The position numbers and the translations under genes were made by a program. Shown here piece by piece: positions 10,836-27,709 of a stretch of DNA of 64,000 bases. A model generated the notes under the pieces. The model worked only from the letters and a program-made list of their open reading frames with translations, was not told the origin of the DNA and ran no database searches. How positions within the stretch are numbered: the first letter of the stretch is position 1; each line of letters opens with the position of its first letter. This DNA is from Escherichia phage vB_EcoP_EcoN5: the sequence record MN715356; one strand, written 5' to 3'.

Positions 10836-10842
10836 TCTATTG

Positions 10843-10859: not shown

Positions 10860-10928
10860 GTAGTAACTGGAGCTAGTAAGTAATGAAACTAATATATCCC
10901 AAGAGGTTAATATATAGGAGACACTCAA

Positions 10929-11147: not shown

Positions 11148-11176
11148 TTTAAAGGGACCACAAAAGGAGGTTAGAA

Positions 11177-11668
11177 ATGGATAACGCCGCATTGCCACCT
11201 GTACAATTAAACTTAAGCCCAGCTGGAATGGAATTCATCATGAAGCATGAGGGTATGAGAACCAAGGCTTATAAAGATTCCGCAGGTATCTGGACTATAT
11301 GTGTAGGGGCTACGCGCGATATGAATGGTTATCCGGTTAGACAAGGATTAACGTATTCTATAGAGGATTGTCTAGCTCTGCTAGATAGAGACACACAAGA
11401 CTCTGTTCGTGCTACTCAGAAGAACATAAAGGTTCCTTTACTAGTTCATGAGTTTGATGCACTCACTTCTTTCAACTTCAATGTTGGCAGTGGAGCTTTG
11501 AGCACATCTAAGTTAAGGAAGGTTATCAATGGAGATGTTAAGGGAGATGTTTATTCCGAATTTCTTCGTTGGGATAAAATAACGGTCAAGGGAGAGAAGC
11601 AGAGAAGTCAGGGTCTTCATAATAGAAGAGTTGCAGAAGCTAATCTTTACACCGAAGGTAAATATTAA
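11177..11668 (+). CDS. lysozyme (T4-lysozyme-like glycoside hydrolase family 24)
   Basis: N-terminal catalytic pattern FIMKHEG...AYKDSAGIWTICVGAT matches the E/D/T triad spacing of GH24 lysozymes. Confidence 0.65.
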   Translation: MDNAALPPVQLNLSPAGMEFIMKHEGMRTKAYKDSAGIWTICVGATRDMNGYPVRQGLTYSIEDCLALLDRDTQDSVRATQKNIKVPLLVHEFDALTSFNFNVGSGALSTSKLRKVINGDVKGDVYSEFLRWDKITVKGEKQRSQGLHNRRVAEANLYTEGKY

Positions 11669-11680
11669 TGGAGGTGCCTT

Positions 11681-12484
11681 TTGGCTATCGAAACTAATGC
11701 GGTAGTTATTACCGATTTAAACCCACTCTATCCTAGAGACAGGGATTACATCTACGAAGGGGCGGCTCAAATCCGCCTCATTAAACAAACGTTACAGAAC
11801 ACATTCCCCAATGTCACAGAGCCAGTTGATATTGATTCTGATACTTTTAAGATTATGTCAGAGAAGCTCAAGTTTACTGGTGATGCAATGGATGTTGGTG
11901 GTCTTATGATCAAGAATGTTACTCCGGGAACTGGTGACAAGGACGTTGTTACTAAAGGTCAGATGGAAGCGTTCATGAAGAACTGGATGGAGAATAAGCT
12001 CTATCGAATTGGCTCTTACTACATCACTGAAGAAGATATTAACCCCGGTGATTCTATCTCCTTAGGGTTTGGCTCTTGGGCTAAAGTGACTGGTGTTATC
12101 ATGGGTACTGGTGTTGTAAACCCTGATGGCTCTGTTCCTAATGCTCAGAGAGTTGAGTTCCAAGCAGGCGGTACAGGTGGTCGTGTCTTCAATACTATTC
12201 GTACAGAGAACGTACCTTTGATGACAGTTAACGGCTCTAGCTTCTCCTTATCAAGCAACACTCATAGTCACAACATGGTATTTGGTCGTGGAGATGCTAG
12301 TGGTCACAACAGCTCACCTAACTGGTATAGCCCGGGTGGTGGTTACAGTCAGAGAACTGAGAATGACACACATACTCATACAATCTCTGGTAGTGTGAGT
12401 CTTGGTCGTGATGATATCTCTCGTCAACCTATTAACACTTTGCCACCATTCAGAGCAGCTCACATTTGGAGACGTATTAGCTAA
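11681..12484 (+). CDS. tail fibre protein with tail-collar-like C-terminal region
   Basis: 267 aa, Gly-rich; C-terminal LPPFRAAHIWRRI resembles phage tail-collar domains. Confidence 0.4.
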   Translation: MAIETNAVVITDLNPLYPRDRDYIYEGAAQIRLIKQTLQNTFPNVTEPVDIDSDTFKIMSEKLKFTGDAMDVGGLMIKNVTPGTGDKDVVTKGQMEAFMKNWMENKLYRIGSYYITEEDINPGDSISLGFGSWAKVTGVIMGTGVVNPDGSVPNAQRVEFQAGGTGGRVFNTIRTENVPLMTVNGSSFSLSSNTHSHNMVFGRGDASGHNSSPNWYSPGGGYSQRTENDTHTHTISGSVSLGRDDISRQPINTLPPFRAAHIWRRIS

Positions 12485-12493
12485 GGAGGAATT

Positions 12494-15400
12494 ATGGCGC
12501 TGTATCCAATAAAGTCGTTAGGTGCTGTAGGCGTTATCGCTGATCAGGCTCCTACAGACTTAGCTCCTAATGCTTTCACTAATGCTATAAATGCTCGATT
12601 TGTTGAGCAGAGAGTATTTAAGACGGGGGGCAATGCCCCTCTTTCTTATGTAGATGAAGATAAGGATTTAACCCCTCTGTCTTTCGTTTCTATGCCTTTC
12701 GATTATTATAGCGCAGGTAATAGCTTTCTTGTTGTAGGTACAGATAAGAAGTTATATAAACTGACAGATGAAAGCTTGACTGATATTAGCCGTAAGGTTG
12801 CTACAGTCACTAAGAAGGCTTCTGCCTCAATTAAGATTTATCCAGTTGTTTCTCAGATTGTTCCTAAAGAATCAACTATCTCAATGAACTTCAATCAGAC
12901 CAAGAATCTAGAGGTTTCTCTTCTCCCTTCTGATGCTAACAATACTGATCTTGTTTGGGAGGTTAGTAACTCATCCTATGGAAGTATTACGGTAGACCCT
13001 AGTGACTCTAAACTTGCTACTCTAACATCTTTTGAGAAAGAGGGTAATCTTGTAGTAACTATCTCTACTGCAAATGAGTCCGTAGTGGCTCAGATTGCTG
13101 TTAATATCATCGATGGTGATTCAGGCATCTTCTTGAGTCAAGATACTGTTACAATTCGTAAAGGAGGGACTACTACTCTCACGGCTGTTACTGGAAAGAC
13201 CCCTGTAACTTGGTCCAGCAATAACGCTTCTATTGTATCTGTAACCCCTAACGCCAATTCTCTAACTGCTGTAATTACAGCGAATGGAGAAGGTAATGTA
13301 ACAATCACTGCTGATAACGGAACTAAGACTGCTTCTTGTGAGATTGTTTCTATCCCTCAGATTGATAGTATCTCTTTAAGCCAGTCAGATGTTACTGTGA
13401 GCAGAGGTTCTCAGTATATCTTAACTGCTACCCTTTCTCCTGCTAACGCTCCTAATCAAAATATTACTTGGACCTCTTCTAATCCAAATATTGCAACAGT
13501 ATCAGGGACTAGCACACAAGGGACAGTAAATGCTTTACTCGCTGGCTTTACTGAGATTACAGCTACCACTGAAGAAGGCAACAGGGTTGCTGTCTGTACT
13601 GTACGGGTAGACTTAGCTGGTAGGACTATGAGAACAAGTGCTATGGCATTTGCTGATCCTGTGTCAGAGCCAGTAGAATCTCAAGAGGAAGAAGTAGTAA
13701 CTCCTTCTGAAAGTGAAGAGACGGTTTATTTTGCTGAGCCTACATCCGGTATCGATACGTCAGGGATGTACGAAGGTAATAACTTCTATGACTACTCTAA
13801 CGTGAATGACATTGAAGGTTTTGCAAGAGCTTCTTTAATGGCAACTCCTTTGTCATCCGTAACCTTAGATGTTGTCAGCGCTTCTCTCGATGTTGGTGAG
13901 GAAATAGTTATTACAGCTACAGCTTCCCCAGAAGGTGATTATTCTTATCAGTGGTCTGTTGATAAGACTGGTTATGTTTCTACAACTTCAGTTACTGGTA
14001 AATCTGTCAAACTGGTTGCTCTTCGTAAAGGAGAGATTAACGTAACATGTACTGTCAGTCAAATGACTCAGAAAGATTATGATGCTTTTGATGACTACCC
14101 TTGGTATCATGCTGTAATTTCTAACTGTGCAGTTGCTACAACCCACTATGAAACTCCTCAGGTAAAAGAATTCGAATCAGAATACTTTGTAGACCTTCCG
14201 GGATGGGGTGAGCAAACAGTTGTTGATAATGACGGAAACCCTTCAGTTAAGAAGTTTAACTGGAAATGTGAGAGAGTGAGATCTTTTAACAACCGTCTTT
14301 TTGCTCTGAATATGAGAGAGGCTAATGCTTCTGGTGTTACCACTAACTACCCGCTTCGTCTTCGTTGGTCTAACTTTGCCAATGAGAATAAGGCTCCTAC
14401 ACTGTGGGATGACTTTGCCTATGATCGAGTTGTGTCTTCGGACTTAGCTTCTAACATCGTAGGGCAGACTCAGGCTCTAGAGAATGGGTATGCTGGTTAC
14501 ATCGACTTAGCAGATTCTAATGGTAGCTTGATTGATATCCTACCTCTTAAAGATTACTTGTTCGTTTATACAGAGTTTGAAACGTATATTGGTTCTCCGA
14601 CTAATAACACATACCAACCCCTGATGTTCAAGAAACTCTTTAACGACTCTGGTATCCTTGCTCCTGAGTGTGTGGTTGAAGTAGAAGGTAGTCACTTCGT
14701 AGTTACTCAGAACGATGTAATCTTACACAACGGTGCAACCAAGAAGTCAATTGCATCTAACCGTGTCAAGAACATGCTGATTAACGAGGTGTGTCTGGTT
14801 AACCCTCTAGCAACTCGAGTTCACTTACATCAGGATAAGAAAGAAGTTTGGGTTCTCTATGTAGGTCCGGGAGAGCCGAAAGAAAGCTTCGCTTGCACTA
14901 AAGCTGCTGTATGGAACTATGAGTTTGATACTTGGTCTTTCCGTACTATCCCTTATGCTCAGTGTATCGGTCTAGTTGATCCTCCTGTTTTAGAGAGAGG
15001 TCCAATCTGGTCTGATTTCCAAGAGATCACTTGGGATGACCCATCTATCAAAGAGCTTGTTTGGAGAAAGGATGCAACAAACTTTAGACAGAGGGTTACG
15101 ATAGTAGGTTCGTTCTTGAGGGGATTCTACCAAGTGGATGTAGGTGCTCTTGATTATTTCTATGATAGGTTAAATGATGTTGTTATAGAGAAGCCTCTGG
15201 AAATGAGGTTGGAGAGAACTGGCATAGATTTTGATAATGTGACGAATGAGTGGAATCAGAAGCATATTAACAGATTCCGTCCTCAGACAACTGGCTCAGG
15301 TACTTATATCTTTGAAGCTGGAGGTAGTCAATTCTCAAATGAATATGGACACCCACACACATCTAAGACTTATACAATTGGTGTTGACAGGCATGTCTCG

Positions 15401-15511
15401 GTGAGACTGAACCATCCATACCTTTTCTATAATGTTATAGATAATGATGTTAACAGTAATGCCGCTATCAATGGTTTAACGATAGAGTTTGCTGTTGGCG
15501 GGCGGAGATAA
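12494..15511 (+). CDS. large tail protein with tandem Big_2-type Ig-like domains (receptor-binding/tailspike candidate)
   Basis: 1005 aa; several about 80-aa segments with Big_2-like pattern (e.g. ITWTSSNPNIATVSGTSTQGTVNALLAGFTEITATTEEGNRVAVCTVRV). Confidence 0.5.
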   Translation: MALYPIKSLGAVGVIADQAPTDLAPNAFTNAINARFVEQRVFKTGGNAPLSYVDEDKDLTPLSFVSMPFDYYSAGNSFLVVGTDKKLYKLTDESLTDISRKVATVTKKASASIKIYPVVSQIVPKESTISMNFNQTKNLEVSLLPSDANNTDLVWEVSNSSYGSITVDPSDSKLATLTSFEKEGNLVVTISTANESVVAQIAVNIIDGDSGIFLSQDTVTIRKGGTTTLTAVTGKTPVTWSSNNASIVSVTPNANSLTAVITANGEGNVTITADNGTKTASCEIVSIPQIDSISLSQSDVTVSRGSQYILTATLSPANAPNQNITWTSSNPNIATVSGTSTQGTVNALLAGFTEITATTEEGNRVAVCTVRVDLAGRTMRTSAMAFADPVSEPVESQEEEVVTPSESEETVYFAEPTSGIDTSGMYEGNNFYDYSNVNDIEGFARASLMATPLSSVTLDVVSASLDVGEEIVITATASPEGDYSYQWSVDKTGYVSTTSVTGKSVKLVALRKGEINVTCTVSQMTQKDYDAFDDYPWYHAVISNCAVATTHYETPQVKEFESEYFVDLPGWGEQTVVDNDGNPSVKKFNWKCERVRSFNNRLFALNMREANASGVTTNYPLRLRWSNFANENKAPTLWDDFAYDRVVSSDLASNIVGQTQALENGYAGYIDLADSNGSLIDILPLKDYLFVYTEFETYIGSPTNNTYQPLMFKKLFNDSGILAPECVVEVEGSHFVVTQNDVILHNGATKKSIASNRVKNMLINEVCLVNPLATRVHLHQDKKEVWVLYVGPGEPKESFACTKAAVWNYEFDTWSFRTIPYAQCIGLVDPPVLERGPIWSDFQEITWDDPSIKELVWRKDATNFRQRVTIVGSFLRGFYQVDVGALDYFYDRLNDVVIEKPLEMRLERTGIDFDNVTNEWNQKHINRFRPQTTGSGTYIFEAGGSQFSNEYGHPHTSKTYTIGVDRHVSVRLNHPYLFYNVIDNDVNSNAAINGLTIEFAVGGRR

Positions 15512-15515
15512 CAAC

Positions 15516-15545
15516 AAGGGGCTTCGTGCCCCTTTTATTGTTTTG
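15516..15545 (+). terminator. rho-independent terminator (AAGGGGC-TTCGT-GCCCCTT + U-rich)
   Basis: Perfect 7-bp stem, UUCG-type loop, followed by TTATTGTTTT; directly after stop of 1005-aa gene. Confidence 0.55.
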
Positions 15546-15554
15546 GAGGAACTT

Positions 15555-16523
15555 ATGGGTGCAGGTGGTTTTCGTAAGAACACTGGTCGCAACAATACCA
15601 CACTCCCGTACAACGTTGGGTTTCTCAATAATGTACAGGACACAGAAACATATAACGTAGCCGTATATGATGAGCTACAAAAAGTCAGTACAGCTACTAA
15701 CCAAATGTTCCAAGCTATTGACGAGATTCACGATGAGATTGATGTTCGTATCAAAGCTCTTCATGCTATGAACCTACAATTCGATGAGCTTGAGAATAGA
15801 ATTACTACAGAGATAGAGACAGCTATTGCCGATATCCAAACACAGATGGGGAACCTCTCCACTGAAGATATTTGGGATAATTCTGTTCAACCTCCTGTAA
15901 AATTAGAAAGCACTGTATCTGGCTTTAAGACGAGTATTGAAGGTAACACAACTAAGATTCAAACGGTAGAAGGTATTGTCAACGACCAAGGTCAAGAGAT
16001 TGCTTTAGTTCAGACAGAGATTCAAAATATTAATGGAAGCCTCTCTCAGTATATGAAACTTTCCGAGTATGAAGCTACGTGGGGTGTTAACTCTACAGTC
16101 AACGGAAGATATGCTGGGGTCAAGTTAACTAACAACGGAACAAACAGCCAATTCCAAGTAACAGCTAACAAATTTATTGTTGGTGATGGCAACTCTGGTA
16201 ACACTCCCTTCGTGTTTGAGGGTGGTAGAGCTAGGATGGAGTTCGCTGACATAAAGAACGTCAACATCACAACAGCTCAGATTGCCAACGCCAGAATCCA
16301 ATGGGCACAGATTGATAACGTATCTATCTCCAATGCTCAGATTCAGAATTTATCAGCGGATAAAATCACTGCTGGTTCTATGTGGGGTTCTAACTGGAGA
16401 CTTACTGTTGGGGGTGACTTTGTTATGGGCGGTACAGGTGGGGCACAATTGTGGATGAATGGTAACAGAATAGATTTCTATGATGGAAGTGGTGCTCTAA
16501 GAATCAGAATAGGGAGTTGGTAA
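15555..16523 (+). CDS. tail fibre-like protein
   Basis: Start moved to ATG 15555 (RBS GGAGGA) because ORF-track start 15489 overlaps the terminator; repeats such as TAQIANARIQWAQIDNVSISNAQIQNLSADKITAG. Confidence 0.45.
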   Translation: MGAGGFRKNTGRNNTTLPYNVGFLNNVQDTETYNVAVYDELQKVSTATNQMFQAIDEIHDEIDVRIKALHAMNLQFDELENRITTEIETAIADIQTQMGNLSTEDIWDNSVQPPVKLESTVSGFKTSIEGNTTKIQTVEGIVNDQGQEIALVQTEIQNINGSLSQYMKLSEYEATWGVNSTVNGRYAGVKLTNNGTNSQFQVTANKFIVGDGNSGNTPFVFEGGRARMEFADIKNVNITTAQIANARIQWAQIDNVSISNAQIQNLSADKITAGSMWGSNWRLTVGGDFVMGGTGGAQLWMNGNRIDFYDGSGALRIRIGSW

Positions 16524-16524
16524 T

Positions 16525-17544
16525 ATGGCATATGGAATATGGTGTCAACCAGTAGGTCCGGGGCCGGCTGCCCCTGCCTCTCTTTTTATAGATAGTAATC
16601 TAACATTTCCACAATACCTAGGGGCATACAGTATATCCCCTTCGTGGAGTGCTAGAAATGCTTCATTTAACGTTGGCTCTTTTGATGGTCAAGGTGAGTT
16701 GTTAATTGTCCCAACCAGTAGACTTATTCAAGATTATTATGTAGGTACAGATTTAATGCCTAGTTTTAGTTATGTAACAGGTATAGGAACTTCTGGACAA
16801 ACAGTAAACATCAATATAGAACCTGCTGGGGCTAGTGGTAATAACAACAGAAATTTCCCAATGTCATTCCAAGCATATAAACTCTGGCCTAGAGGTAATA
16901 GAAGTTATGGAATAACTTTCTCCAATTCAGCGGATTTCTTTTCTATCTCTGATAGTGGGGTTGTTGGTCAGTGTGTTTGGGCGTACAGAGGGGCTGTAGG
17001 GGATGGTTTTACTGTTCCTAATGCTGGGCCTAATGCTCTTGTGTTTGCCAATTGGAATCAGGGTGGGGTGTGTGCTTCTTACAATGCAAGTAATGGTCAA
17101 ATGATTATAACCCACAATAGGTCGAATCAGTCCGGCAGTAACAGAGGTGCAGTAATAAATGATATGAGAATTGCTGTTTTTGCTAGTGGGGTAGGTGTAC
17201 CGGAACATAATGGAGGTTTGAATATTTATTCTCCTGGGACAACCACTTGTGTATTCTCTACTTACAGGACTCCTTTTGCTATCAGTAGGTTCTTCCCGTC
17301 AAGTGGGGGTGGTACAGGTCTAGGTATTCCTATGATGTGTATGAACGTTACCAACGGAGCTATAACAGCGCAAGGTGGTGGGTGGATGTGGGTTCACGAA
17401 AGATCTCATACAATGAGTGGTACATCGGTGGGAACAGGCTTTGGCCCACTCGTGGCTAACTGGACTGACCAATACCCAATCAATGTTAACATAAACCTAG
17501 GATTCAATTACCCAATGTTGGAAGGTTCTTTAATTTATGCATAA
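16525..17544 (+). CDS. hypothetical virion/tail protein
   Basis: 339-aa ORF in structural operon, Gly/Asn-rich beta-type composition. Confidence 0.4.
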   Translation: MAYGIWCQPVGPGPAAPASLFIDSNLTFPQYLGAYSISPSWSARNASFNVGSFDGQGELLIVPTSRLIQDYYVGTDLMPSFSYVTGIGTSGQTVNINIEPAGASGNNNRNFPMSFQAYKLWPRGNRSYGITFSNSADFFSISDSGVVGQCVWAYRGAVGDGFTVPNAGPNALVFANWNQGGVCASYNASNGQMIITHNRSNQSGSNRGAVINDMRIAVFASGVGVPEHNGGLNIYSPGTTTCVFSTYRTPFAISRFFPSSGGGTGLGIPMMCMNVTNGAITAQGGGWMWVHERSHTMSGTSVGTGFGPLVANWTDQYPINVNINLGFNYPMLEGSLIYA

Positions 17545-17553: not shown

Positions 17554-18336
17554 ATGGCAATTAGAATGGGTATCGAAGAACTAGACCCAATGGTACAGCA
17601 AGCTTCAAAGAAGTATGGTATTCCTGCTGCTTTGATTCATGCTGTAATCCAAAGAGAGTCTAGTGGTCGTCCTACAGTGGCCTCTGGAACTGGTCCTGTA
17701 GGTCTAATGCAGATCAGTAAAGGGTTGGCTAAAGACTATGGATACAAACTAGAAGATAGACTGGACCCAGCAAAGAATATTGACATGGGTGCTCGTTATA
17801 TCAGAGATAACTTAAAAGCTTTTAATGGTGATGTTAAGAAAGCAATGGTTGGTTACTCGGAAGGTATAGGCGGTGCTAAGCAGATGTTCGCTGGTAAAAG
17901 AGGGTTTACCCCTCAAGCCCTTGACTCAATGAATAACAAACACTTTCTCCCTTTCTATGGTGATGCAGCTTCTCAGATTGCTAATCCAATTGGAGCTTTA
18001 CAAGCTGTTCAACCAATAGATCAGTTTAATCCAGAAAACCTAAATAGAGAGAAGGCTGCACAAGCTCCAACTCAGGCAGAGATTGCTGCTTCTAAGACAG
18101 GTGCTTTAGGTGGTAATCCAGTAGAGTTCTACTCTGATGAAGTTCAGGAAGGTGAAGATCAGAAGCCTCAACAGAACTTTGGTAATGCAGTATTAGGAGT
18201 AGCTGCTATGCTTGCTGGTAAACCTCCCACCTCTCAAACAGTTCAGAGGGCAAGTGCACCACATGCAGCAGGTTCTCAGTACAGCCCACAAACACAAGCA
18301 GTGCTCAGACGTTTGGCTAGCATTGGTGTAAAGTAA
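17554..18336 (+). CDS. lytic transglycosylase (SLT domain) virion protein
   Basis: N-terminal motif IQRESSGRP...GLMQISKGLAKDYGY matches the ES...GLMQ...Y active-site signature of SLT-type transglycosylases. Confidence 0.6.
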   Translation: MAIRMGIEELDPMVQQASKKYGIPAALIHAVIQRESSGRPTVASGTGPVGLMQISKGLAKDYGYKLEDRLDPAKNIDMGARYIRDNLKAFNGDVKKAMVGYSEGIGGAKQMFAGKRGFTPQALDSMNNKHFLPFYGDAASQIANPIGALQAVQPIDQFNPENLNREKAAQAPTQAEIAASKTGALGGNPVEFYSDEVQEGEDQKPQQNFGNAVLGVAAMLAGKPPTSQTVQRASAPHAAGSQYSPQTQAVLRRLASIGVK

Positions 18337-18355: not shown

Positions 18356-19408
18356 ATGTCTTTATTTGGAAAATCAGCTTCTAGCAAAACCACAGTGGCC
18401 CCTTCCTCTCAGGTTGATGCCCTGCTGAAGCAGATTGTTGCTAATGCTCAGAATATGCAGAACAACGATCCGGGATTCATCTCCCAACAGCTGGCTGGGT
18501 TTAATGGCAATCAACAGGGCGCTCTGAATAACTTAGCAGCTTCTACAACTCAGAAGCAATTAGCTGATATGTACACACCACGTACACAGCAAGGGTTGGA
18601 CCAACTAAACTCTCTTGCCCAGCAGTATCAGAATATTGTCAATGGTGGTGGTCTAACTGCTGATAGTGTTAATAACTTCAGTAAAGGGTTGAATAACTCA
18701 GCTCTTGCTCAGGCTACTAGCAAAGCAGCTTCTAATGTTTCTCTTGGCAATGGCTCTGATTCAGGCTCTCTCCGTAGGGCTGCGGCTCAAGGTGCTGCCC
18801 TGAATGGTGCTAATACAAATCTATCTCGTACCATCAATGGTAAGAACATGGGAATCAGTGCTCTTCAACAAGACCAGAACTTCCAGAGAGGTTTGCTTGG
18901 TGCTCAGTCCGGTTTAGCTGGACAGAATCTCAATCTTGGTGCTCAAGGTGTTCAGGCAACTCAACAAGCTATTCAGAATCAGCTGATGGCTGGTAATCTG
19001 CAACAGCAACAAGCTCAAGCTCAAGCGGATATTAATTGGCAAAATGCTATTGGCTCTCAGCAGTATGGGTGGAATCAGCTTAACAATCAGCTTAATGTAT
19101 TAAACAGTGTAAGCCCAATGGCTGGGTATACGATTAAGAATGCTGCTCCGGGAGTCAATGCTGGACAACAGCTCCTAGGTGCTGGTATCACTGGTTTAGG
19201 TATTGCGGGTCGTATGGGTGCTTTCTCCCCTAACCAACAGACTCAGAATGCTTGGAGTTCTTATAACAACTCAGGTGGGCAATCTGGAATGGCTGGTCCT
19301 ATGATTGGAGGTTCTAATCTTTCTCAACAGAAAGGTCAATCTAACTGGTTATCCACAACGGGTAATAATATCTTAGGCGGAGTCTTAGGGGCATTTGGAG
19401 CAAACTAA
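18356..19408 (+). CDS. Q/N-rich internal virion (ejection-type) protein
   Basis: 350 aa, about 25 percent Gln/Asn, low complexity; tandem paralog of next gene. Confidence 0.45.
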   Translation: MSLFGKSASSKTTVAPSSQVDALLKQIVANAQNMQNNDPGFISQQLAGFNGNQQGALNNLAASTTQKQLADMYTPRTQQGLDQLNSLAQQYQNIVNGGGLTADSVNNFSKGLNNSALAQATSKAASNVSLGNGSDSGSLRRAAAQGAALNGANTNLSRTINGKNMGISALQQDQNFQRGLLGAQSGLAGQNLNLGAQGVQATQQAIQNQLMAGNLQQQQAQAQADINWQNAIGSQQYGWNQLNNQLNVLNSVSPMAGYTIKNAAPGVNAGQQLLGAGITGLGIAGRMGAFSPNQQTQNAWSSYNNSGGQSGMAGPMIGGSNLSQQKGQSNWLSTTGNNILGGVLGAFGAN

Positions 19409-19420
19409 AGGAGATTTAAT

Positions 19421-20389
19421 ATGGCACTTTTCGGAGGCGGGGGTAGTAAAACTACTTCCCAAATGATTCGCCCTGAATATATTCAACAGTATATTGACCA
19501 GCTTAACCAGCAGATTGGTAATACTAGTTCAGGGGATTATGTCTATCGTGACAACGTAGGATTTAATAACAACCAGACAGAAGCTCTTAATAATTTGGCT
19601 CAATCCGGTGCTCTAGGGACTCTCTCACAACAATACATGGATGCAGCAGGTCAGGGATTGGGTTATCTCGATAACGCCTATAAAGGTTATCAGAGCCTCT
19701 CTGGACAAGGCGGGATTACTGGAGAACAGATTGGTGCTCTTGCTGGTCAACTGTATGACGACGATGCTGTTCAGGCAGCTATTACAGCTAATAACGAACA
19801 AGTTCAACAGAACCTAGCACGTAATGCTCTTCCTCAATTGGCTCAACAGTATGCTGGTCAGCAGGGTTCAGGTGCTCGTATGGCTAAATCTTTTGCTCAG
19901 GGTGATGCTCTGAATCAGATGCAAAATCAAGCAACAGATATTACCAATAGTGCTTATAACTCGGCTATCAACCAAGCTGAAAGCATTCTCTCTGGTAATA
20001 GACAGAATCAGGCAGCTGCTCTCTCGGGCCTTTCTACTATTGGTTCTAACCTTTCTAACCTAGGTCAGCAGGGTGCTAATTTGTCTCAACAGCAAATAAT
20101 GAATCAGTGGAATGCAGGGTTGCAGCAACAACAGCAACAACAGAATGAATATGATAATGCCTACCAGAATGCTCAGAACGCAGCTAATTGGGGATGGCAA
20201 GATATCAATAACCAACTCGGTGCAGCAGGTGTACTTAACGGTGCTCTCGGACAAACTACAACTACTAAAACATCTGGTGGCAAAGGTGGTTTCCTTGGTG
20301 GAGCTATGAGTGGTGCAGCAGCAGGTTCTTCCTTTGGGCCTTGGGGTGCATTAGCTGGGGGTGTAATCGGTGGGTTGGCTAGTACTTAA
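19421..20389 (+). CDS. Q/N-rich internal virion protein, paralog of 18356..19408, Gly-rich hydrophobic C-terminus
   Basis: Shared motifs with upstream gene (M-x-LFG..SKTT, ALNNLA, QQQQ...NW(Q/G)W); C-terminal GGFLGGAMSGAAAGSSFGPWGALAGGVIGGLAST. Confidence 0.45.
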   Translation: MALFGGGGSKTTSQMIRPEYIQQYIDQLNQQIGNTSSGDYVYRDNVGFNNNQTEALNNLAQSGALGTLSQQYMDAAGQGLGYLDNAYKGYQSLSGQGGITGEQIGALAGQLYDDDAVQAAITANNEQVQQNLARNALPQLAQQYAGQQGSGARMAKSFAQGDALNQMQNQATDITNSAYNSAINQAESILSGNRQNQAAALSGLSTIGSNLSNLGQQGANLSQQQIMNQWNAGLQQQQQQQNEYDNAYQNAQNAANWGWQDINNQLGAAGVLNGALGQTTTTKTSGGKGGFLGGAMSGAAAGSSFGPWGALAGGVIGGLAST

Positions 20390-20402: not shown

Positions 20403-22058
20403 ATGCAACAGACAACTTACGCTCAGGTCAGAAGTCGTGACCCGAGAAATACTTTCTATGGTGTTAATCCGGGAGCGGCTTCGGCCTCTCCTTATATGGC
20501 TAGACCTACTCAGACAGCAGATATTTCTATGTATCAACGTCCTTCTGTACCTTCATCTCTTGCGGGTCTTGTCTCTCAGGCAGAAGAAGATCAGAATGCT
20601 ATGGTTAATCCGGGATTCCAGCAACGTCTTATGGAACAGCAGAATCAAGGAACTCCTACCAGCCTTCAGGGTATTGATATTGGAGCACCAGCCCCTGTAT
20701 CAGCTAATCCTAACCTATCCACTGATCAAGGTTTACAGGATGCTGGGCTTATACCTAGTGACCCTCTTCCGGTAACACCTCCTTCTAAACCACTAGAAGC
20801 TGGTCCTATGGAGTTTACTCCTTCTCAGGTGGAACAGGCACAAGGTGTGATTAACACTCTTGCTCAAGGACAAGACACTGGTGATGGAATGGCTGCTGCT
20901 ACTCGTGCTAAAGATCAAGAACGTGTTAACAATGATATTTTGCAAGTTGCGAAAGCTAAAGACCCTTCAGAAGCTTGGAATAAATTACAGAAAGAACCAT
21001 TCTATCAGAACTCTAGTTTCTACACAGGTTTGATGGGTGTAGGTCTTTCAATTATGTCAGGTAAGTCTCCTATCGAAGCTTTCCAGATTGGTCAGGGAAT
21101 GGCTAATCAAGATGAGACTAAGAAGCAACTAGAAGCTAACCGTGATGCCCTGATTGAACAAGGTTTCTCTCAAGACTCAATCGCAGCTGCTATTGCTAAC
21201 GGAGACCCATCCCTGCTGAAGATGAAAGCTGTAGACCCTGCTCAGAAAGAAGCTCTGTATGCTGCTCGTGAAGAACGACAAAATGCTGAATGGGATAGAC
21301 GTCAACAGATTCAAGAGCAGGCTATGCGTGAACGTGCCGAGGAAACACGTCGTGCTGCTGAAAAGAGAACTAATATGAACTTTGAACGTCAGAAAGAGTT
21401 GATTGGCTATCGTGATAAAGTTAAGGCTGAACGTGCTGAACAAGTTGCTCAAAGTTTCAACTTCCCCACAAAAGAAATCCGTAACGCTCAGAATACAGCT
21501 GAAGGTACTATCGCTAAGCAGTGGGCAGAGAAAGGTGGCTTGTTTAACCAGTCTAATAAAGACTTGGACTTGGCTGATAAAGCTGTTAAGGACAAAGACT
21601 ATCAGACGGCCCGTTCTGCTTACATGCAGGCTATCATGAACTCCGCAAGAGCTGAAATTGGTTCTACTCGTTCTCTCACTGAAGAAGATTTGGGGCATTT
21701 TGCAGAAGACCCATCAATCTTTATCCGTGTAGGTAACAAGTTTGCTCTGAAGTCTGGGTGGCGTCCTACTGATTCTGCTCTTGCTTATGCTCGTAAACAG
21801 GCTAATGTCGGTCACACCTCTGCTATGAAAGGTGTTGCTGATGCTAAGAGAGATACTATCAACGCTTATGTTGGTTCTGGTATGGATAAGAAGAGAGCTA
21901 CTGCATTGGTTAACCGTGCAATTCCTTCTGGTGGTTTCTATGACCCTCTCGGTGTTTTCTCTGATGAAGCAGAAGATTATGTTGGTGGTGCAGCAACCAA
22001 TCCTAAACTGAACGGTGCTTTATCAGCTGTCGAAGACACTAGCTGGTTCACGCAATAA
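20403..22058 (+). CDS. internal virion protein (hypothetical)
   Basis: 551-aa ORF in structural operon, coiled-coil/charged C-terminal half. Confidence 0.4.
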   Translation: MQQTTYAQVRSRDPRNTFYGVNPGAASASPYMARPTQTADISMYQRPSVPSSLAGLVSQAEEDQNAMVNPGFQQRLMEQQNQGTPTSLQGIDIGAPAPVSANPNLSTDQGLQDAGLIPSDPLPVTPPSKPLEAGPMEFTPSQVEQAQGVINTLAQGQDTGDGMAAATRAKDQERVNNDILQVAKAKDPSEAWNKLQKEPFYQNSSFYTGLMGVGLSIMSGKSPIEAFQIGQGMANQDETKKQLEANRDALIEQGFSQDSIAAAIANGDPSLLKMKAVDPAQKEALYAAREERQNAEWDRRQQIQEQAMRERAEETRRAAEKRTNMNFERQKELIGYRDKVKAERAEQVAQSFNFPTKEIRNAQNTAEGTIAKQWAEKGGLFNQSNKDLDLADKAVKDKDYQTARSAYMQAIMNSARAEIGSTRSLTEEDLGHFAEDPSIFIRVGNKFALKSGWRPTDSALAYARKQANVGHTSAMKGVADAKRDTINAYVGSGMDKKRATALVNRAIPSGGFYDPLGVFSDEAEDYVGGAATNPKLNGALSAVEDTSWFTQ

Positions 22059-22125
22059 GACCTAAGTCCTGCCTTCTATAATGTATATAGGGGGTAGGAC
22101 ATTTTTATTTATAAAAGGAGACGTT

Positions 22126-25100
22126 ATGGCTAACATTAAACCGTGGGAAGAAGCTTCCAAAGCTCCTGCGTATCTGAATGCCTCTCCGGAGCAGCAAGCT
22201 CAAATGAGAGAACAATATAAGGCAGCAGGTGGCTCTATTCCTGAGGAACAGCCAGTAGCACAACCACAACAAGAAGAACGTGGTGTTATAGGTGAGTTTG
22301 CTCAAGGTGTGTCAAATGCTCTTCAATCTGGTGGTGCAAATATTGCAGCTAGTGCTGCTAAAGGTATTGGTGGTTTAGTTGAGATTGGTGAGAATCTAGC
22401 TGGAGCACAAACTAGTTATGGTAAGCGTATCCAAGAGAACTCTCAGAACCTTCTGAAAGAACGTATGGATAAGATTGAGGATGGGATTGGTAAAACTGCT
22501 GGGCAATATGCTGGTGTTGTTGGTGATATTGGTTTGACTGTTGCTAACCCGTTAGCTGCTGCTGCTATCATCGCAGGTCGTGAGACAGGTCGTGCATATG
22601 CAGACCAAACTCCTGAAGAGGGAGAAGATAAGTCTATTCTAGATGCAGCCTTAGTTGGTGGTGCTAACTATGCGGCTCAGAGAATCCTTCCAGGTGCTGT
22701 CGGTACAGCTGAGTCCACACTTGGACGTATTGGTCAGAACGTTGCTAGTAACGCAGTGGCTGGTGCTAAAGGTGGTGCTCTTGTAGGTGCTGCTGAAGCT
22801 CAGAACAAGCATGGAGATGATACAACCTTTGCTAATGTGTTAGAGGGTGCTATCGAAGAAGGTGCTATGGGTGCTGCATTTGGGGGTGCAGTTGGTGGGG
22901 TTCATGGTTTGATTAGCCGTCCGGATTCTGCTGTCTTCAAGAACACTCCAGAGTATGCGAAGACTGATATTGCTGCTGATGATGAACTGATTCGTAGTGC
23001 TAAGAACGTTGATGAACTGAAAGAAGCCTACTCTAAAGCTGATACTGCTAACGCTGCTTCTGCTCTTAATCTTCTGGATGAGAATGGATTCCGTATCACA
23101 GATGCTGTTGCTGTAGATTCTCCTGCTGCCCAGCGTATTCTTAATACAGACCAAGCTCGTGCTGAGAAAGCTGCTTCTGCTCAGAAAGATCACTCTAACA
23201 TTCCGGGCCTCAATCCTTTAGCTGCTCCTTCTAAGACTCGTGGTAAAGCATTCGCTGATAATGAGCACAACCAGAAACAGGCTGTTGCTATGAAGGATGC
23301 GATGGCTGACTACACCAAGGATAACACGAAAGCTCTTACAGATGTTCTAGACAACCTAGATCGTGAATTAACTTCTCTTAGAGCATCTGGGCACTTCACC
23401 GGTAGTCCACTTGACGTTAAGAATCGCACACAAGCTGACCGTGATTTCATTGATGCTTACAAGACTTTCTACAACGAGGCAAATCGATTCAAAGCTCGTG
23501 ATGGTGAAGACTTTAACAACTTTGTAGAGAAAGCTGCTGAGCTACAGAAGATGGCTGATAATGTTTCTCCAGAGATGAAGAAAGCTATTGGTGGGCTGAA
23601 GAAACTGAAAGGTATGCCTGAAGGTTTTAATCCTATTCAAGATGCTTACACTCTGAACAATACAGCTAAGTTCATGAGCAACCAAGATCGTGGTTGGACT
23701 TCCCTGACTGATGATGGATTCCGTGAGGCTTCTTCTCCTAGTCTGGTTATGAACACACTCGGTGCTGCTAAGTATGCTCTGAATCGCTTCTCTTCTCAGC
23801 GTGCTCGCTCTCAACGTGTTAAGCAACAAGAATCTAACAGTGAAGCTATCCGCTCTCTGGCTCGTGGTGATTTGGAAGTTGCTCGTGCTAAGTCCACTGC
23901 TGATGAAGCTCGTGCTAAAATGGAAGAAGAACCAGTTGTTGATGACATTAAATTTAAGACGCAAAATGACGTGGAAACCGAACCGGTTCGGGAGCCTTCT
24001 TCTAGTACTGTGACGGAAGAAAATCTTCCTTCTTCTAATCCTCAAGAAACTCCTCTTACGGCCCGTGATTTGGTTGCGCAAAGACGTGCTATCCGTCAGG
24101 CTGAACAGCGTCGCGCTGAAGAAGAGGCAGCGGCTGCTCAAGAAACTCCGGTTGAACAGGCTCCACAGGCTGAACCCCTCCCTGCTCGTAATCCTTTAGA
24201 GGAACGTCGTGCAATGGAACAGCAACGTGCTCAAGAAGAGACCGCACAGGCTCCAGAACCAGCTGTAGAGGAACCAACAGTCAAAGCTGAGCCATTACCT
24301 GCCCGTGCTCCTAAAGCTCCTCAGGAAGCTGTACAGGATGTTAAACCGGAAAGTGGTGTAGAATTCCTAGCTGCTATGTCAAGCACTGCTCGTCAAGTTG
24401 CTAAAGATCGTGCAACACGTTTTGCTAAATCTTTATACTCTAAGGCTGCTAAAGCTAAAGCTACTGCTGAAAACTTCTTGGCTTACAAGGGAGACCCTTT
24501 GGAGTTGATGCGGCGTATTCGTCGGGAAGATAATGCTATCAACACTGAACGTCATGAAGAAATGGCTCGTAACCAGCTGGCTTCTCAGCAAGGTATTGCT
24601 ACTGCTAAGAACAACACTGTACGAACTAATTTTGCTGAATGGGTTAAAGAACGCGGTCTACCAGAAGACATTGCTACTAAGGCATTACGTGCTGAAGAGA
24701 AAGGCTTAGGTGGGAACGTAACTAACTTAGATAGTCTGAAACGTCGTGCTGAAAGGTTGTATCAGAAGCAGCGTGAGGATGAGTTTGACAGGTTATATAA
24801 AGAGGCTCTGGAAGAGAATAAAGCTTTCGATAAGAGAGATGCTCCTAAACTGGTTGACCAGAAGAAAGAGCTTCAGTCTGAGATTGACACTTTAATTGAT
24901 TCAGAACCTTTACGTCCTGCCCAGAAAGATGCTATGCGTAGACTGATGAATGATTATGTAGATGGGAAGTTTAAATCTTCAGAGAAGGCTGGTAGGGAAG
25001 AGGCTTTGGAAGTTGGTCAGATGAAGGATATTTGGGATGGGTTTATTAACACCTATAACAGAGAAGTGAATGCCTTCAACAAAGCTAACAAGAACTCTCA

Positions 25101-26547
25101 ATACGAAGCTGCTGCTAAGCATTTACAGGCTCGTGAAGAACGTCTTGCTACTCTGAGAAACAAAGCTCAGGCTCGTTCAGATGCTAAGGCTGCTGTTGAG
25201 AATGAACGTAAAACTCTAGAGGCTATTGCAGCTCAGAAGAGTGAGATTGAGAAGATGATGGAAGGTTTACCTAAACCTGTTCGTGAGGCTCAGGAATCTC
25301 GTACATTGAAACAGTTGGCTGCTCACCATGATAAGAACTCTCCAGTTCCTCCAGAGAAGTTCCGTAGTTACATTGAACGTATCCATAACGCCGAGTCAGA
25401 TTACCTTGATCGTCAGCGTCGTTTAACTGATGCAGAGGAGGATGCTCGTCAGGCTAAGTGGAACAAGATGTATGATCAAGCGGAAGAGATGGACCGTAAG
25501 TTTGATATAGACAAAAGAGTTAAGCGCAGTGAAGAGCTTAAAGCGGCTCAGAAGCGTGAGAATGACCTTATGGCAGTACAACGTCAACGTGACGACATTC
25601 ATCGTCGCCTGATGCATACTATGGAAGATAAAGGCATATCTAAAGAGGATGCTGAAGCATTTGCTGGTTCCTACATGGATAACCGTTATGCACTTCTTGA
25701 TAAGCCTATGACTCCTACTGAACACCAGAATGCTCGTTCTCGTATCGAGGCTGATGTTGAGAAGTTCGCTAAGAAGTATGAATCAATGACTCCTATCGAG
25801 AAAGAGATTGTTAAGGTTACTGGAGATACTGAAGGTAAGCTTGATAACTTGGATGCGGATACTAGGAAGGCTGTTGAGGAGGCTCAGAAGGTTGACTCTG
25901 ATATTAAGAAACTGCAAGAGGAAGAGTTGGAGATGGAGAAGATTCGTTCTGCTCTGCCTGACGATGAAAAATCTCAAGCAAATTCTGATATCTTGGAAAG
26001 TATCAAACAACAGGAAGAAGTCTTTGCTGATAAAGTAGAGAAAGCTTTCTTGAGTGGGAAGAGCTTGGATGAGTTAGCTAGCGTGGCTGAAGTTTTAGAC
26101 AGGGTTCATGGTTCAGATAAAGCTGGTAACAACCGTCGCTTTGTACGTGCATTGCAAACTGCTGCTGAAAACAAGAAGAAGTATGGTGATAATCCGGTAG
26201 CTTGGTTTAGTGCTGATGATTACTCTGCCATTGCTAAACTTGGTGCTTCTTCCGCAGGTGGTAACAAATCTAGAGCACTGGAGAAAATCTTTGGTTCTAC
26301 AGCTGAACAGGCTAAGAGTAAGTTGCTTGGTAGGGATGATGTAGCGAAGATGAGACGTGTGATCGAAGAGAACCCTGATATCAAGATTCCTTCTTACAAG
26401 ACAACGAATCGTACTGAGTACTTGCAGTTCTTGGAGAAGTTTAATGACGAAGGGAAGCCGAAGATTAAACGTGGCTCATTGTCAGAGAAGCTTGAACGCA
26501 GTAAGCGTCAATCGAGACTCCGTGTAAGAGTTCGACCTAAGGAGTGA
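22126..26547 (+). CDS. large internal virion / DNA-ejection protein (coiled-coil rich)
   Basis: 1474 aa from ATG 22126 (RBS AAAGGAG); extensive charged helical regions; last gene of structural arm before bidirectional terminator. Confidence 0.5.
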   Translation: MANIKPWEEASKAPAYLNASPEQQAQMREQYKAAGGSIPEEQPVAQPQQEERGVIGEFAQGVSNALQSGGANIAASAAKGIGGLVEIGENLAGAQTSYGKRIQENSQNLLKERMDKIEDGIGKTAGQYAGVVGDIGLTVANPLAAAAIIAGRETGRAYADQTPEEGEDKSILDAALVGGANYAAQRILPGAVGTAESTLGRIGQNVASNAVAGAKGGALVGAAEAQNKHGDDTTFANVLEGAIEEGAMGAAFGGAVGGVHGLISRPDSAVFKNTPEYAKTDIAADDELIRSAKNVDELKEAYSKADTANAASALNLLDENGFRITDAVAVDSPAAQRILNTDQARAEKAASAQKDHSNIPGLNPLAAPSKTRGKAFADNEHNQKQAVAMKDAMADYTKDNTKALTDVLDNLDRELTSLRASGHFTGSPLDVKNRTQADRDFIDAYKTFYNEANRFKARDGEDFNNFVEKAAELQKMADNVSPEMKKAIGGLKKLKGMPEGFNPIQDAYTLNNTAKFMSNQDRGWTSLTDDGFREASSPSLVMNTLGAAKYALNRFSSQRARSQRVKQQESNSEAIRSLARGDLEVARAKSTADEARAKMEEEPVVDDIKFKTQNDVETEPVREPSSSTVTEENLPSSNPQETPLTARDLVAQRRAIRQAEQRRAEEEAAAAQETPVEQAPQAEPLPARNPLEERRAMEQQRAQEETAQAPEPAVEEPTVKAEPLPARAPKAPQEAVQDVKPESGVEFLAAMSSTARQVAKDRATRFAKSLYSKAAKAKATAENFLAYKGDPLELMRRIRREDNAINTERHEEMARNQLASQQGIATAKNNTVRTNFAEWVKERGLPEDIATKALRAEEKGLGGNVTNLDSLKRRAERLYQKQREDEFDRLYKEALEENKAFDKRDAPKLVDQKKELQSEIDTLIDSEPLRPAQKDAMRRLMNDYVDGKFKSSEKAGREEALEVGQMKDIWDGFINTYNREVNAFNKANKNSQYEAAAKHLQAREERLATLRNKAQARSDAKAAVENERKTLEAIAAQKSEIEKMMEGLPKPVREAQESRTLKQLAAHHDKNSPVPPEKFRSYIERIHNAESDYLDRQRRLTDAEEDARQAKWNKMYDQAEEMDRKFDIDKRVKRSEELKAAQKRENDLMAVQRQRDDIHRRLMHTMEDKGISKEDAEAFAGSYMDNRYALLDKPMTPTEHQNARSRIEADVEKFAKKYESMTPIEKEIVKVTGDTEGKLDNLDADTRKAVEEAQKVDSDIKKLQEEELEMEKIRSALPDDEKSQANSDILESIKQQEEVFADKVEKAFLSGKSLDELASVAEVLDRVHGSDKAGNNRRFVRALQTAAENKKKYGDNPVAWFSADDYSAIAKLGASSAGGNKSRALEKIFGSTAEQAKSKLLGRDDVAKMRRVIEENPDIKIPSYKTTNRTEYLQFLEKFNDEGKPKIKRGSLSEKLERSKRQSRLRVRVRPKE

Positions 26548-26549
26548 TA

Positions 26550-26592
26550 AAAGAAAAGCCCCCAACCGAAAGGAAGGGGGCTTTATTTGTTT
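26550..26592. terminator. bidirectional rho-independent terminator at convergence of the two arms
   Basis: AGCCCCC-(12-nt loop)-GGGGGCT hairpin flanked by A-run upstream and T-run downstream. Confidence 0.55.
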
Positions 26593-26908
26593 CTAAGTTT
26601 TAAAAACCATCAAATTCGTCATACATCCCAATTCTCTTCAGAAATCTGGATGTTCATCTTCAAAGCATCCTGAGATGCCTCCATAGAACCAGTCTGATTT
26701 ACTTCCAAGGATAACAACTTCTTCATTCATATACCCTCCTAGATTGTGTTTATAAAATTAGTAAGTTTCTCTTCACTTTCATCAAAAGCTTTTCCAGCTG
26801 CTTCCATCTCCCAAGTATTGGCATTGTCAATAAAGCTCTGAGCTTCTAACAGGTCGTGGATTAAGTCGAAGAGTTTATTTTTATCTGCTTGTGTGATCAT
26901 GTTAGTTC

Positions 26909-27136
26909 CTAGATTAAATCGTAATACTGAATAATGTCAGAGAGTTTGAACTCTCGAATCTCATCTTTCTCTATATCTATCGCTGTCATAATCCAACAAG
27001 GTTTGCCACCGTTATGAAAACGGGAGCTAGCAACGGAGGTTCGGAGTGGAATAACGGACCGGTCAGCAACCTCGCCTCTCCAATTGCGATAGCGAAAGCG
27101 AAGCACTTGTTGCGTAGATTTTTGATCATCACTCAT
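26909..27136 (-). CDS. hypothetical protein
   Basis: ORF 26909..27277 trimmed to internal ATG (MSDDQK) because 5' part overlaps HNH gene in another frame. Confidence 0.3.
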   Translation of the reverse strand: MSDDQKSTQQVLRFRYRNWRGEVADRSVIPLRTSVASSRFHNGGKPCWIMTAIDIEKDEIREFKLSDIIQYYDLI

Positions 27137-27696: not shown

Positions 27697-27709
27697 TATA
27701 ATATCCTTA

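Follow-up and report, generated by a model that had tools for sequence, protein, structure and literature searches.

The locus studied here raises the question of what two adjacent proteins, both rich in Gln and Asn, do for the phage that encodes them. The window, i.e., the whole 64,000-nucleotide stretch of DNA that was analysed, comes from Escherichia phage vB_EcoP_EcoN5 (sequence record MN715356), a Kuravirus of the phiEco32/SU10 type. A preliminary description of this DNA had taken the two genes for tandem paralogs encoding internal virion proteins, and the coordinates and lengths that it gave for both open reading frames (350 and 322 aa) proved exact. The two genes, named A and B here, lie in a block of five:

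17554..18336, plus strand: SLT lytic transglycosylase, 260 aa, upstream of A (phiEco32 gp22, SU10 gp20; Pfam SLT, E 1.4e-23)
18356..19408, plus strand: paralog A, 350 aa, ortholog of phiEco32 gp23 and SU10 gp21
19421..20389, plus strand: paralog B, 322 aa, ortholog of phiEco32 gp24 and SU10 gp22 ("putative DNA injection protein")
20403..22058, plus strand: ejection protein of 551 aa, downstream of B (phiEco32 gp25, SU10 gp23)
22126..26547, plus strand: giant ejection protein of ~1473 aa (phiEco32 gp26, SU10 gp24)

A and B are separated by a gap of 12 nt, and a strong AGGAG ribosome-binding site precedes each of them. A scan for promoters and terminators between A and B detected no internal signals, and promoter-like sites were fewer than in shuffled sequences. 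The listed open reading frame of the giant ejection protein starts at 22081, within a terminator-like hairpin. Antisense open reading frames of 58-65 aa found within the A and B genes were dismissed, as they are unsupported and lie opposite genes with verified protein products.

In nucleotide sequence, the region is 94.6% identical to phiEco32, and its genes follow the same order. A is identical to phiEco32 gp23 in 342 of 350 residues (97.7%) and B to phiEco32 gp24 in 314 of 322 (97.5%), and both of these orthologs, which correspond to SU10 gp21 and gp22, carry the RefSeq label "DNA ejection protein". Mass spectrometry of SU10 phage preparations covered 53% of gp21 and 49% of gp22 (PMC4281155). 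Moreover, SU10 gp20-24, a group that includes the SLT ortholog gp20 among the ejection proteins, are present in virions and missing from genome-release intermediates; the tail needle, too, disappears at that step (PMC9509320). In that study, the SU10 tail was resolved by cryo-EM as portal, adaptor, nozzle, needle and two fibre types, while gp20-24 matched no resolved tail density and were grouped as internal/core proteins (PMC9509320). The reading of A and B as internal virion or ejection proteins was right, and it is backed by experiment on the near-identical SU10 gp21 and gp22. Packaging in the virion and exit at genome release, shown by others for these orthologs, would extend to A and B by orthology. 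The ejection-protein finding is real but largely known already, as it was shown earlier by experiment in SU10.

The similarity of A and B far exceeds chance and composition effects. Composition-adjusted BLASTP aligned 275 aa of the two proteins at 31% identity (E 4e-13), in agreement with the paralogy proposed in the preliminary description. The Smith-Waterman score of A against B was 278, compared with 94-112 ± 13-15 for composition-preserving shuffles (whole-sequence, 20-aa-block and 10-aa-block; z = 11-15) and with 106 for A against reversed B. Both proteins matched a single PHROG, phrog_4287, over their full length, with E 5.1e-117 for residues 1-350 of A and E 1.4e-110 for residues 1-310 of B. 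The motifs reported to be common to the pair were also found: the N-terminus reads MSLFGKSASSKTT in A and MALFGGGGSKTT in B, ALNNLA occurs in both, and the poly-Q region reads QQQQAQAQADINW...YGW in A and QQQQQQQNEY...NWGW in B. These comparisons show that A and B stem from a single ancestral gene. The DNA repeat search of gene A against gene B returned short chance matches only and no shared nucleotide-level repeat, which makes the duplication an old one. Neither protein matched a Pfam family, and a sequence search of PDB chains gave nothing for A and one chance match for B (E 0.5).

The Gln/Asn content, put at about 25 percent in the preliminary description, reached 27.1% for A and 25.5% for B, whereas six structural proteins encoded nearby had 10-17%. 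Gly accounts for 13-15% and Ala for 13% of the residues of the pair, and charged residues are scarce (6.6% in A, 8.7% in B). The Gly-rich hydrophobic tail noted at the end of B is real and spans aa ~285-322, with 10 overlapping (G/A/S)xxxGxxx(G/A/S) motifs in aa 285-321. It is not special to the second gene: A contains two hydrophobic Gly-rich segments that had been missed, at aa 272-291 and 338-350, joined by a Q/N/G/S-rich linker, with motifs at 276-284, 310-318 and 341-349, and at least two glycine-zipper motifs were present in 149 of 158 relatives. The Pfam Gly-zipper models did not match B and stayed below threshold in the relatives (P0134 reached 21.5 bits, where 25 are required). The giant ejection protein has a hydrophobic, Gly-zipper-rich stretch as well, near aa 143-279 when numbered from the start of the open reading frame at 22081. 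Collectively, these analyses showed that A and B each consist of an alpha-helical, low-charge, Q/N/G/A-rich module (aa ~19-275 in B) with a hydrophobic glycine-zipper segment after it.

The helical nature of the module was seen in structure predictions. The AF2 model of B, built as a monomer from a 74-sequence alignment and with the tail left without a model, was all-alpha (pLDDT 67.9), with helices at 19-34, 50-60, 63-95, 101-111, 114-143 and 150-275. The last of these is the Q/N-rich region, predicted as one long alpha-helix with a block-mean pLDDT of about 62-92. Helices 19-34 and 63-95 showed significant periodicity at 3.55-3.65 residues, and in helix 150-275 no heptad (3.5-residue) hydrophobic periodicity rose above that of shuffles. 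The corresponding model of A (30-sequence alignment, monomer, tail without model) was mostly helical, with a pLDDT of 48 that made it unusable for a fold search. Foldseek of the B model against the PDB gave generic long-helix proteins only (E ≥ 0.017, TM ≤ 0.37), chemoreceptors, Smc and colicins among them, and these matches were rejected as meaningless. Against BFVD, the matches were uncharacterised phage proteins with TM 0.2-0.4, which fits the sequence-based family and adds nothing independent to it.

The same region bears on whether A and B could be genuine prion or amyloid formers, whose self-templating aggregation would have a biological role. By the crude measure of 30 or more Q/N in an 80-aa window, the classical threshold, both proteins qualified (35 in aa 171-250 of A, 33 in aa 184-263 of B), and the Q/N richness is kept in both paralog families, at 21-29%. 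On the other hand, the Q/N-rich region is predicted to be helical with moderate to high confidence, and its columns are conserved position by position, beyond mere composition, across a family diverged to 25-30% identity, with, e.g., N230 and N244 invariant and conserved Trp residues. Such a pattern does not resemble a disordered prion domain, and the term prion-like used in the preliminary description holds for the composition only. In addition, the contacts listed for P22 gp7-gp7 and gp7-gp20 are mostly Q/N hydrogen bonds (bioRxiv 10.64898/2026.09.03.749273), so that such side chains make ordered inter-helix bonds in that protein. Taken together, a prion function for A and B is extremely improbable.

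By sequence comparison, the A/B family extends beyond Kuravirus. A search for related loci with alignment A1 found only eight. The order of the block is the same in the loci L008, L010-L012 and L015. The five genes, i.e., SLT, A, B and the proteins of ~570 and ~1350 aa, are kept together in relatives of just 43-53% identity. In single-copy relatives, such as Privateer gp18 and P0120-P0134, the helical module and glycine zipper are followed by a self-cleaving Peptidase_S74 domain. PF13884 matched nine of ten single-copy relatives at the same position, two above the gathering score, and the S74-type signatures were present, with an (F/W)-S-D-x-x-x-K start and a VLAQ...PEAV...VDY core. A Peptidase_S74 domain was also found in 14 of 50 long relatives. 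PF13884 did not match A or B at E ≤ 10; at the position of FS-D in the relatives, A reads AFS-PNQQ, and the tail alignment places the end of B within a few residues of the predicted S74 cleavage serine of the single-copy relatives. In effect, B corresponds to the form left after cleavage. Other relatives fuse an A/B-type module to peptidoglycan hydrolase domains, either SLT or Hydrolase_2, and one such fusion is an "internal virion protein D" whose gene is the third one after that of a P22 gp10-like tail hub. The Privateer homolog was verified by mass spectrometry as a virion protein, which supports the ejection role of A and B.

The S74 domain is a chaperone typical of trimeric tail fibres and spikes, acting within the molecule and cleaving only as a trimer (PMC8326128, PMC6972908). 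Its presence in single-copy relatives and the annotation of some relatives as tailspike or tail fibre, together with the loss of the SU10 needle at the same step as gp20-24, could suggest that A and B belong to the outside of the tail, as trimeric parts that are fibre-like or associated with the needle, are shed with it and are never stored in the head. We consider this very unlikely, because the SU10 tail is accounted for by cryo-EM with gp20-24 placed as internal/core, A and B have no S74 domain and sit within the ejection-gene block beside the SLT protein, and B is predicted to be all-helical, with no beta-helix.

Comparison with characterised ejection proteins gave a resemblance at the tail. 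With a family profile of P22 gp7, hhalign aligned B 292-317 to gp7 195-223 (E 3.9e-4). The 26 columns of this alignment are 50% identical and take in the PWG turn, but the probability is just 36% and the sequence is of low complexity; with gp7 as a single sequence, the match was weak (E 0.0037, probability 9%). Pfam P22_gp7 (PF25688), which gave 428 bits with P22 gp7 itself, did not match A or B at E ≤ 10. No member of the A/B family was matched by a local HMM of the gp7 family either (HMMER, --max). The hhalign comparisons with T7 gp14 and P22 gp20 were null (probability 0.1% and 0.2%). We do not claim homology to P22 gp7, since the gp7 profile recovered the tail only and HMMER nothing. The composition of gp7 is similar (Q+N 18%, G 14%, A 17%, charged 10%). 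In situ, helical hairpins of the gp7 body are arranged as a ring on the tail hub, and the gp7 tail is a two-helix, V-shaped hairpin within the outer membrane (bioRxiv 10.64898/2026.09.03.749273).

These comparisons also bear on whether A and B might be internal head-core or packaging-related proteins that would, e.g., arrange the DNA close to the portal or act as its plug, and that would exit with it, forming no pore or channel. Such a role would agree with the lack of a significant match to known pore-forming ejection families, and with the SU10 work, which shows just presence in the virion and absence after release, with density assigned to neither protein. It is, in our view, improbable, given that the glycine-zipper hydrophobic tail is kept in almost the whole family, that relatives fuse the module to peptidoglycan hydrolases, and that the tail of B resembles the outer-membrane hairpin of P22 gp7. 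Moreover, the two roles are not truly exclusive, as the head-core proteins of T7 and P22 are themselves the channel formers.

The reading that we prefer, and hold to be probable, is that A and B are two small paralogous ejection proteins of a phiEco32/SU10-type Kuravirus that act in place of P22 gp7 or T7 gp14 in the membrane DNA conduit; they are likely to be gp7- or gp14-like subunits of a membrane pore or channel. With the tail needle gone, A and B would thread the tail channel in an extended state and refold at the nozzle tip into a ring of helical hairpins, in which networks of Gln/Asn hydrogen bonds would provide most of the cohesion, as they do in P22 gp7*. Their glycine-zipper tails would become short V-shaped helical hairpins inserting into the outer or perhaps the inner membrane, and A and B together would make the stretch of the DNA conduit nearest the membrane. 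Cutting of the peptidoglycan would fall to the SLT protein encoded next to them, and the channel would be lengthened inward by the 551-aa and ~1473-aa proteins. This channel role is supported by the identity and synteny with phiEco32/SU10, phrog_4287, the SU10 virion data and the conserved block, and also by the all-alpha model of B, the family-wide glycine zipper, the hydrolase fusions and the gp7-like tail and composition. Counting against it are the null comparisons with PF25688, the gp7 HMM, T7 gp14 and P22 gp20, a tail match at 36% probability, generic Foldseek matches, AF2 confidence that is low to medium and a long helix without clear heptads. The S74 domain of the relatives also implies trimers, for which a gp7-like 12-mer ring is not an obvious fit.

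Two further ideas can be joined to the channel reading, and as a pair we regard them as tentative and rather unlikely. The ancestral small ejection protein might have been a precursor in which a glycine-zipper, membrane-inserting tail was capped by Peptidase_S74, a precursor that in some phages would have included the whole hydrolase-bearing ejection polyprotein. Self-cleavage would release the tail only after assembly, and the Kuraviruses would have cut the gene at the cleavage site, the truncation giving B. After duplication, A and B might then have split roles as non-equivalent subunits of a mixed ring, e.g., six A and six B on a six-fold nozzle, filling "outer" and "inner" positions where P22 gp7 uses two conformers to deal with a C12/C6 mismatch.

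For these two genes themselves, the result is of small importance; they are known, annotated and placed by experiment among the SU10 ejection proteins. What is added here is the breadth of the family, its S74 and hydrolase relatives, the end of B near the cleavage site and the P22 gp7-like tail. A literature search found no paper discussing paralogy of the A/B type or S74-bearing ejection proteins, and the published Kuravirus work, as far as found, is silent on the paralogy, the composition, the tails and the link to S74-bearing relatives. The wider picture, made up of the Q/N-rich helical module with its glycine-zipper tail, the S74 or hydrolase domain after the tail in relatives, and a tail like the P22 gp7 hairpin, could aid studies of how short-tailed phages lead their DNA through the cell envelope in a channel. 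It yields predictions for the Kuravirus channel that bear on which proteins form the membrane pore, on whether two different subunits make up the ring, and on whether ejection proteins of phages such as Privateer mature by S74 cleavage.

Among known systems, the pair phiEco32 gp23/gp24 (SU10 gp21/gp22) shows no substantive difference from A and B: the lengths (350 and 322 aa) and the place in the SLT-A-B-551-~1473 aa block are the same, as expected of another isolate of the same phage group. The P22 gp7/T7 gp14 class resembles A and B in being small, helical, Q/N/G/A-rich and low in charge, with a glycine-zipper tail and an (S/G)-P-W-G turn. A and B differ from P22 gp7 in being about 100-120 aa longer, in forming a pair of genes instead of one and in having no detectable homology to it beyond the 26-column tail; T7 gp14 shows no similarity to them. 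Peptidase_S74/ICA-domain proteins are like the C-terminal domain of the single-copy relatives, A and B themselves having no S74, but they carry a triple beta-helix upstream in a receptor-binding fibre context, whereas the A/B family has an alpha-helical part upstream in an ejection-protein context. Finally, T7 gp16 is comparable to the distant A/B relatives, in which a single protein of 900-1700 aa holds both an A/B-type module and an SLT or SleB-like hydrolase; the SLT domain of T7 gp16 is N-terminal and it has no phrog_4287 module, whereas in this Kuravirus the functions are split over separate genes, with the SLT gene immediately before A.

Two adjacent genes of the window, A and B, encode the proteins considered here:

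18356-19408, + strand: gene A, open reading frame of 350 aa
19421-20389, + strand: gene B, open reading frame of 322 aa

They are separated by 12 nt, and a strong AGGAG ribosome-binding site stands ahead of each. The positions are exactly those of the preliminary description, and the motifs it listed were all found: MSLFG..SKTT and MALFGGGGSKTT, ALNNLA in both proteins, and poly-Q followed by NW..W. The Q/N richness it had noted also held, with Gln plus Asn accounting for 27.1% of A and 25.5% of B versus 10-17% in six neighbouring structural proteins; glycine contributed 13-15%, alanine 13%, and charged residues only 6.6% (A) and 8.7% (B). The Gly-rich hydrophobic tail ascribed to the second protein is present in B but is not limited to it, as A has glycine-zipper hydrophobic segments too, at aa 272-291 and 338-350. 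By BLASTP with compositional adjustment, A and B shared 31% identity over 275 aa (E 4e-13), and their Smith-Waterman score was 278, versus 94-112 ± 13-15 for whole-sequence, 20-aa-block and 10-aa-block shuffles (z = 11-15) and 106 for reversed B. Pairwise alignment thus bore out the proposed tandem paralogy, and the similarity is no by-product of composition. A nucleotide-level repeat between the two genes was sought and none was found, indicating that the duplication is old.

The region showed 94.6% DNA identity to phiEco32 and SU10, Escherichia phages of the genus Kuravirus, and 85 phage records span at least 80% of it. A corresponds to phiEco32 gp23 and SU10 gp21 (342 of 350 residues identical to gp23), and B to phiEco32 gp24 and SU10 gp22 (314 of 322 identical to gp24). 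RefSeq labels both proteins "DNA ejection protein", and GenBank labels gp24 "putative DNA injection protein". With phrog_4287, "DNA ejection protein", both gave full-length matches (A, E 5e-117; B, E 1e-110), so their paralogy was already implicit in public resources. No Pfam family covers A or B, and the PDB sequence search with both returned no relative. The virion proteomics proposed as a check is already published for the SU10 orthologs, with a favourable outcome. Mass spectrometry by Mirzaei et al. (2014) detected gp21 with 53% coverage (11 peptides) and gp22 with 49% coverage (5 peptides) in phage that was PEG-concentrated, not CsCl-purified (PMC4281155). Using SDS-PAGE and mass spectrometry, Siborova et al. 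(2022) found SU10 gp20-24 in virions and missing from genome-release intermediates, did not find tail density attributable to them, and named them ejection proteins (PMC9509320). In agreement with the internal virion reading, we regard A and B as very probably ejection proteins. About 90 phage genomes carry annotations of these genes, a single PHROG unites them, and experiments place them among the SU10 ejection proteins, so this paralogous Q/N-rich pair is already known in substance.

Several neighbouring features were also recorded. The ejection block has on one side the gene for a 339-aa DUF6453 protein (16525-17544, + strand; phrog_1265 'membrane protein', SU10 gp19), which separates it from the tail-needle gene; according to the SU10 supplement, gp19 was not detected in virions. 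A strong terminator-like hairpin, with a 15-pair stem and then a T-run, occupies 22066-22100 (+ strand) and separates the 551-aa gene from that of the giant ejection protein. The latter gene (22081-26547, + strand) corresponds to SU10 gp24, to which the SU10 supplement gives the label 'Nuclear Pore Complex'. Its mechanically listed start in the window, 22081, falls inside the hairpin, and the gene probably starts at ATG 22126 (MANIKPW...), matching the 1473-aa phiEco32 gp26. The protein is 33% charged overall, yet has a hydrophobic glycine-zipper-rich stretch near its N-terminus (residues ~143-279), a candidate membrane segment. GC skew changes sign at ~26000-28000; at the syntenic point in phiEco32, + strand late structural genes yield to - strand genes.

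AF2 modelled A poorly from 30 sequences (pLDDT 48), and B from 74 sequences at pLDDT 67.9, with residues 100-200 above 80. The B model was all alpha-helical (19-34, 50-60, 63-95, 101-111, 114-143 and 150-275), its tail 277-322 being unmodelled, and the long predicted helix contains the Q/N-richest window (184-263). True prion or amyloid behaviour, which the composition would favour, is hardly credible, as the predicted helix and the position-specific conservation speak against it. Amphipathic periodicity was significant in helices 19-34 and 63-95 and not significant across helix 150-275. Foldseek with the B model returned only generic long-helix proteins from the PDB (E >= 0.017, TM <= 0.37) and uncharacterised phage proteins from BFVD, all with low TM-scores, some labelled "intramolecular chaperone auto-processing domain" or "DNA transfer protein".

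A profile built from 30 A- and B-family members and searched against 1.84 billion representative proteins retrieved 504 relatives at E <= 1e-3, 67 at E <= 1e-10, which fall into three architectures. Q/N richness of 21-29% is common to both paralog families, and a glycine zipper follows the Q/N-rich helical module in 149 of 158 family members. The first architecture is the tandem pair: a block of SLT lytic transglycosylase, A, B and proteins of ~570 and ~1350 aa is kept in 82-90-kb uncultured relatives (loci L010-L012) at identities of only 43-53%, and the tandem block is also present in an Enterobacter-associated contig (L015). In a neighbour-joining tree, upstream copies cluster with A and downstream copies with B, a result that is indicative only, the tree being without bootstrap and the sequences compositionally biased. 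On L015 (Logan SRR24679947, 59.9 kb), the Kuravirus-like SLT-A-B-490-1108 aa block lies at 8025-15838, immediately downstream of capsid, terminase and portal genes of the SU10 type, in a module order that differs from phiEco32. P0041 is also reported on a 317-kb Enterobacter cloacae contig; a copy on so long a bacterial contig could reflect a prophage, a misassembly or contamination.

The second architecture comprises single proteins of 400-430 aa, in which the helical module and glycine zipper are followed by a Peptidase_S74 intramolecular-chaperone domain. Proteus phage Privateer gp18 (L004 5869-7098), a virion protein verified by mass spectrometry, is of this kind and is the sole copy within the 12.6-kb Privateer stretch examined. 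Of 10 single-copy proteins, 9 matched PF13884, all at one location and with the match beginning at profile position 1; two exceeded the gathering score. The sequences plainly show the (F/W)-S-D-x-x-x-K start and VLAQ..PEAV..VDY core. S74 is usually tied to tail fibres and spikes; it stands directly after the glycine zipper in the ejection-type Privateer gp18, P0120, P0123, P0125-P0130 and P0134. This S74 heritage hints that A and B might form an external trimeric fibre-like part shed with the needle, a highly improbable reading, since both the gene context and the tail map of SU10 argue against it. In the third architecture (530-1700 aa), the module is N-terminal; 50 long relatives were scanned, and S74 was found in 14, SLT in 4 and SleB-like Hydrolase_2 in 2. 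An uncultured phage from Manatee Spring (MW202675.1) encodes a 1185-aa "internal virion protein D" with an N-terminal A/B-type module (L016 8986-12543); a gene for a P22 gp10-like "phage stabilization protein" lies three genes ahead of it.

The tail of B, FLGGAMSGAAAGSSFGPWGALAGGVIGGLAST up to the stop, was 54% identical to that of P0123 in a C-terminal alignment, and B ends within a few residues of the predicted P0123 self-cleavage site, between GAFS and DATLKD. A reads ...MGAFS-PNQQ... at the equivalent point and continues with a 59-aa Q/N/G/S-rich stretch bearing a second short hydrophobic segment at its end. The S74-bearing single-copy proteins form the sister group of the B clade (neighbour-joining without bootstrap on compositionally biased sequences; indicative), so B looks like the descendant of an S74-matured ancestor that has become "pre-cleaved" at the genetic level. 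Cleavage by S74/ICA domains is known to occur only in the trimeric state, and these domains also help the trimer upstream of them to fold (PMC8326128, PMC6972908, PMC3742440). That ancestral ejection proteins matured via S74, and that A and B form a mixed ring mimicking the two conformers of P22 gp7, is doubtful; if true, it would be of moderate interest.

The best explanation is that A and B are probably packaged, expelled and assembled into a membrane-entering helical ring. Stored in the head, they would be expelled once the needle is lost and would then form a helical ring at the nozzle tip; its glycine-zipper hairpins would enter the membrane, while the adjacent SLT protein would cut peptidoglycan and the two large ejection proteins would extend the conduit. 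Packaging and release are the only steps shown, by others and in SU10 only; all the steps after release we infer. For a specific membrane-pore role of A and B, we put the chances slightly below even. That A and B have an internal role only, as core or packaging proteins that do not insert into a membrane, is rather improbable and not fully exclusive of the membrane-entering ring.

Among known systems, neither T7 gp14 nor P22 gp20 showed similarity to the 74-sequence profile by hhalign. With 18% Q+N, 14% G, 17% A and 10% charged residues, P22 gp7 is similar in composition to A and B, and its C-terminal end is AIGGGASGAIAGAGLAKLIGSSTPWGAAIGGGIGLLGSLF. With a gp7-family profile, this tail aligned to B 292-317 over 26 columns at 50% identity (E 3.9e-4, only 36% probability). 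No alignment of gp7 with A or B was found beyond the tail, and neither Pfam P22_gp7 (PF25688), at E <= 10, nor a local gp7 HMM matched A or B. The searchable literature yielded no discussion of S74-capped or hydrolase-fused relatives, of B as a pre-cleaved form or of a gp7-like tail; these additions to the known picture are modest. What keeps the gp7 comparison useful is a 2026 P22 preprint, in which gp7* adopts two alternating conformers and builds a dodecameric ring of helical hairpins on the hexameric tail hub; the inter-subunit contacts listed there are mostly Q/N hydrogen bonds, and the C-terminal tail of gp7 is a V-shaped helix pair embedded in the outer membrane (bioRxiv 10.64898/2026.09.03.749273). 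The way A and B function may be gp7-like, although the profile searches do not place them in that family, and the gp7* picture offers a sober explanation for their Q/N richness and glycine-zipper tail: the former would be an inter-helix "polar glue" for a protein that must unfold, thread through a narrow channel and then, with no chaperones to help, reassemble, and the latter would be a membrane hairpin.
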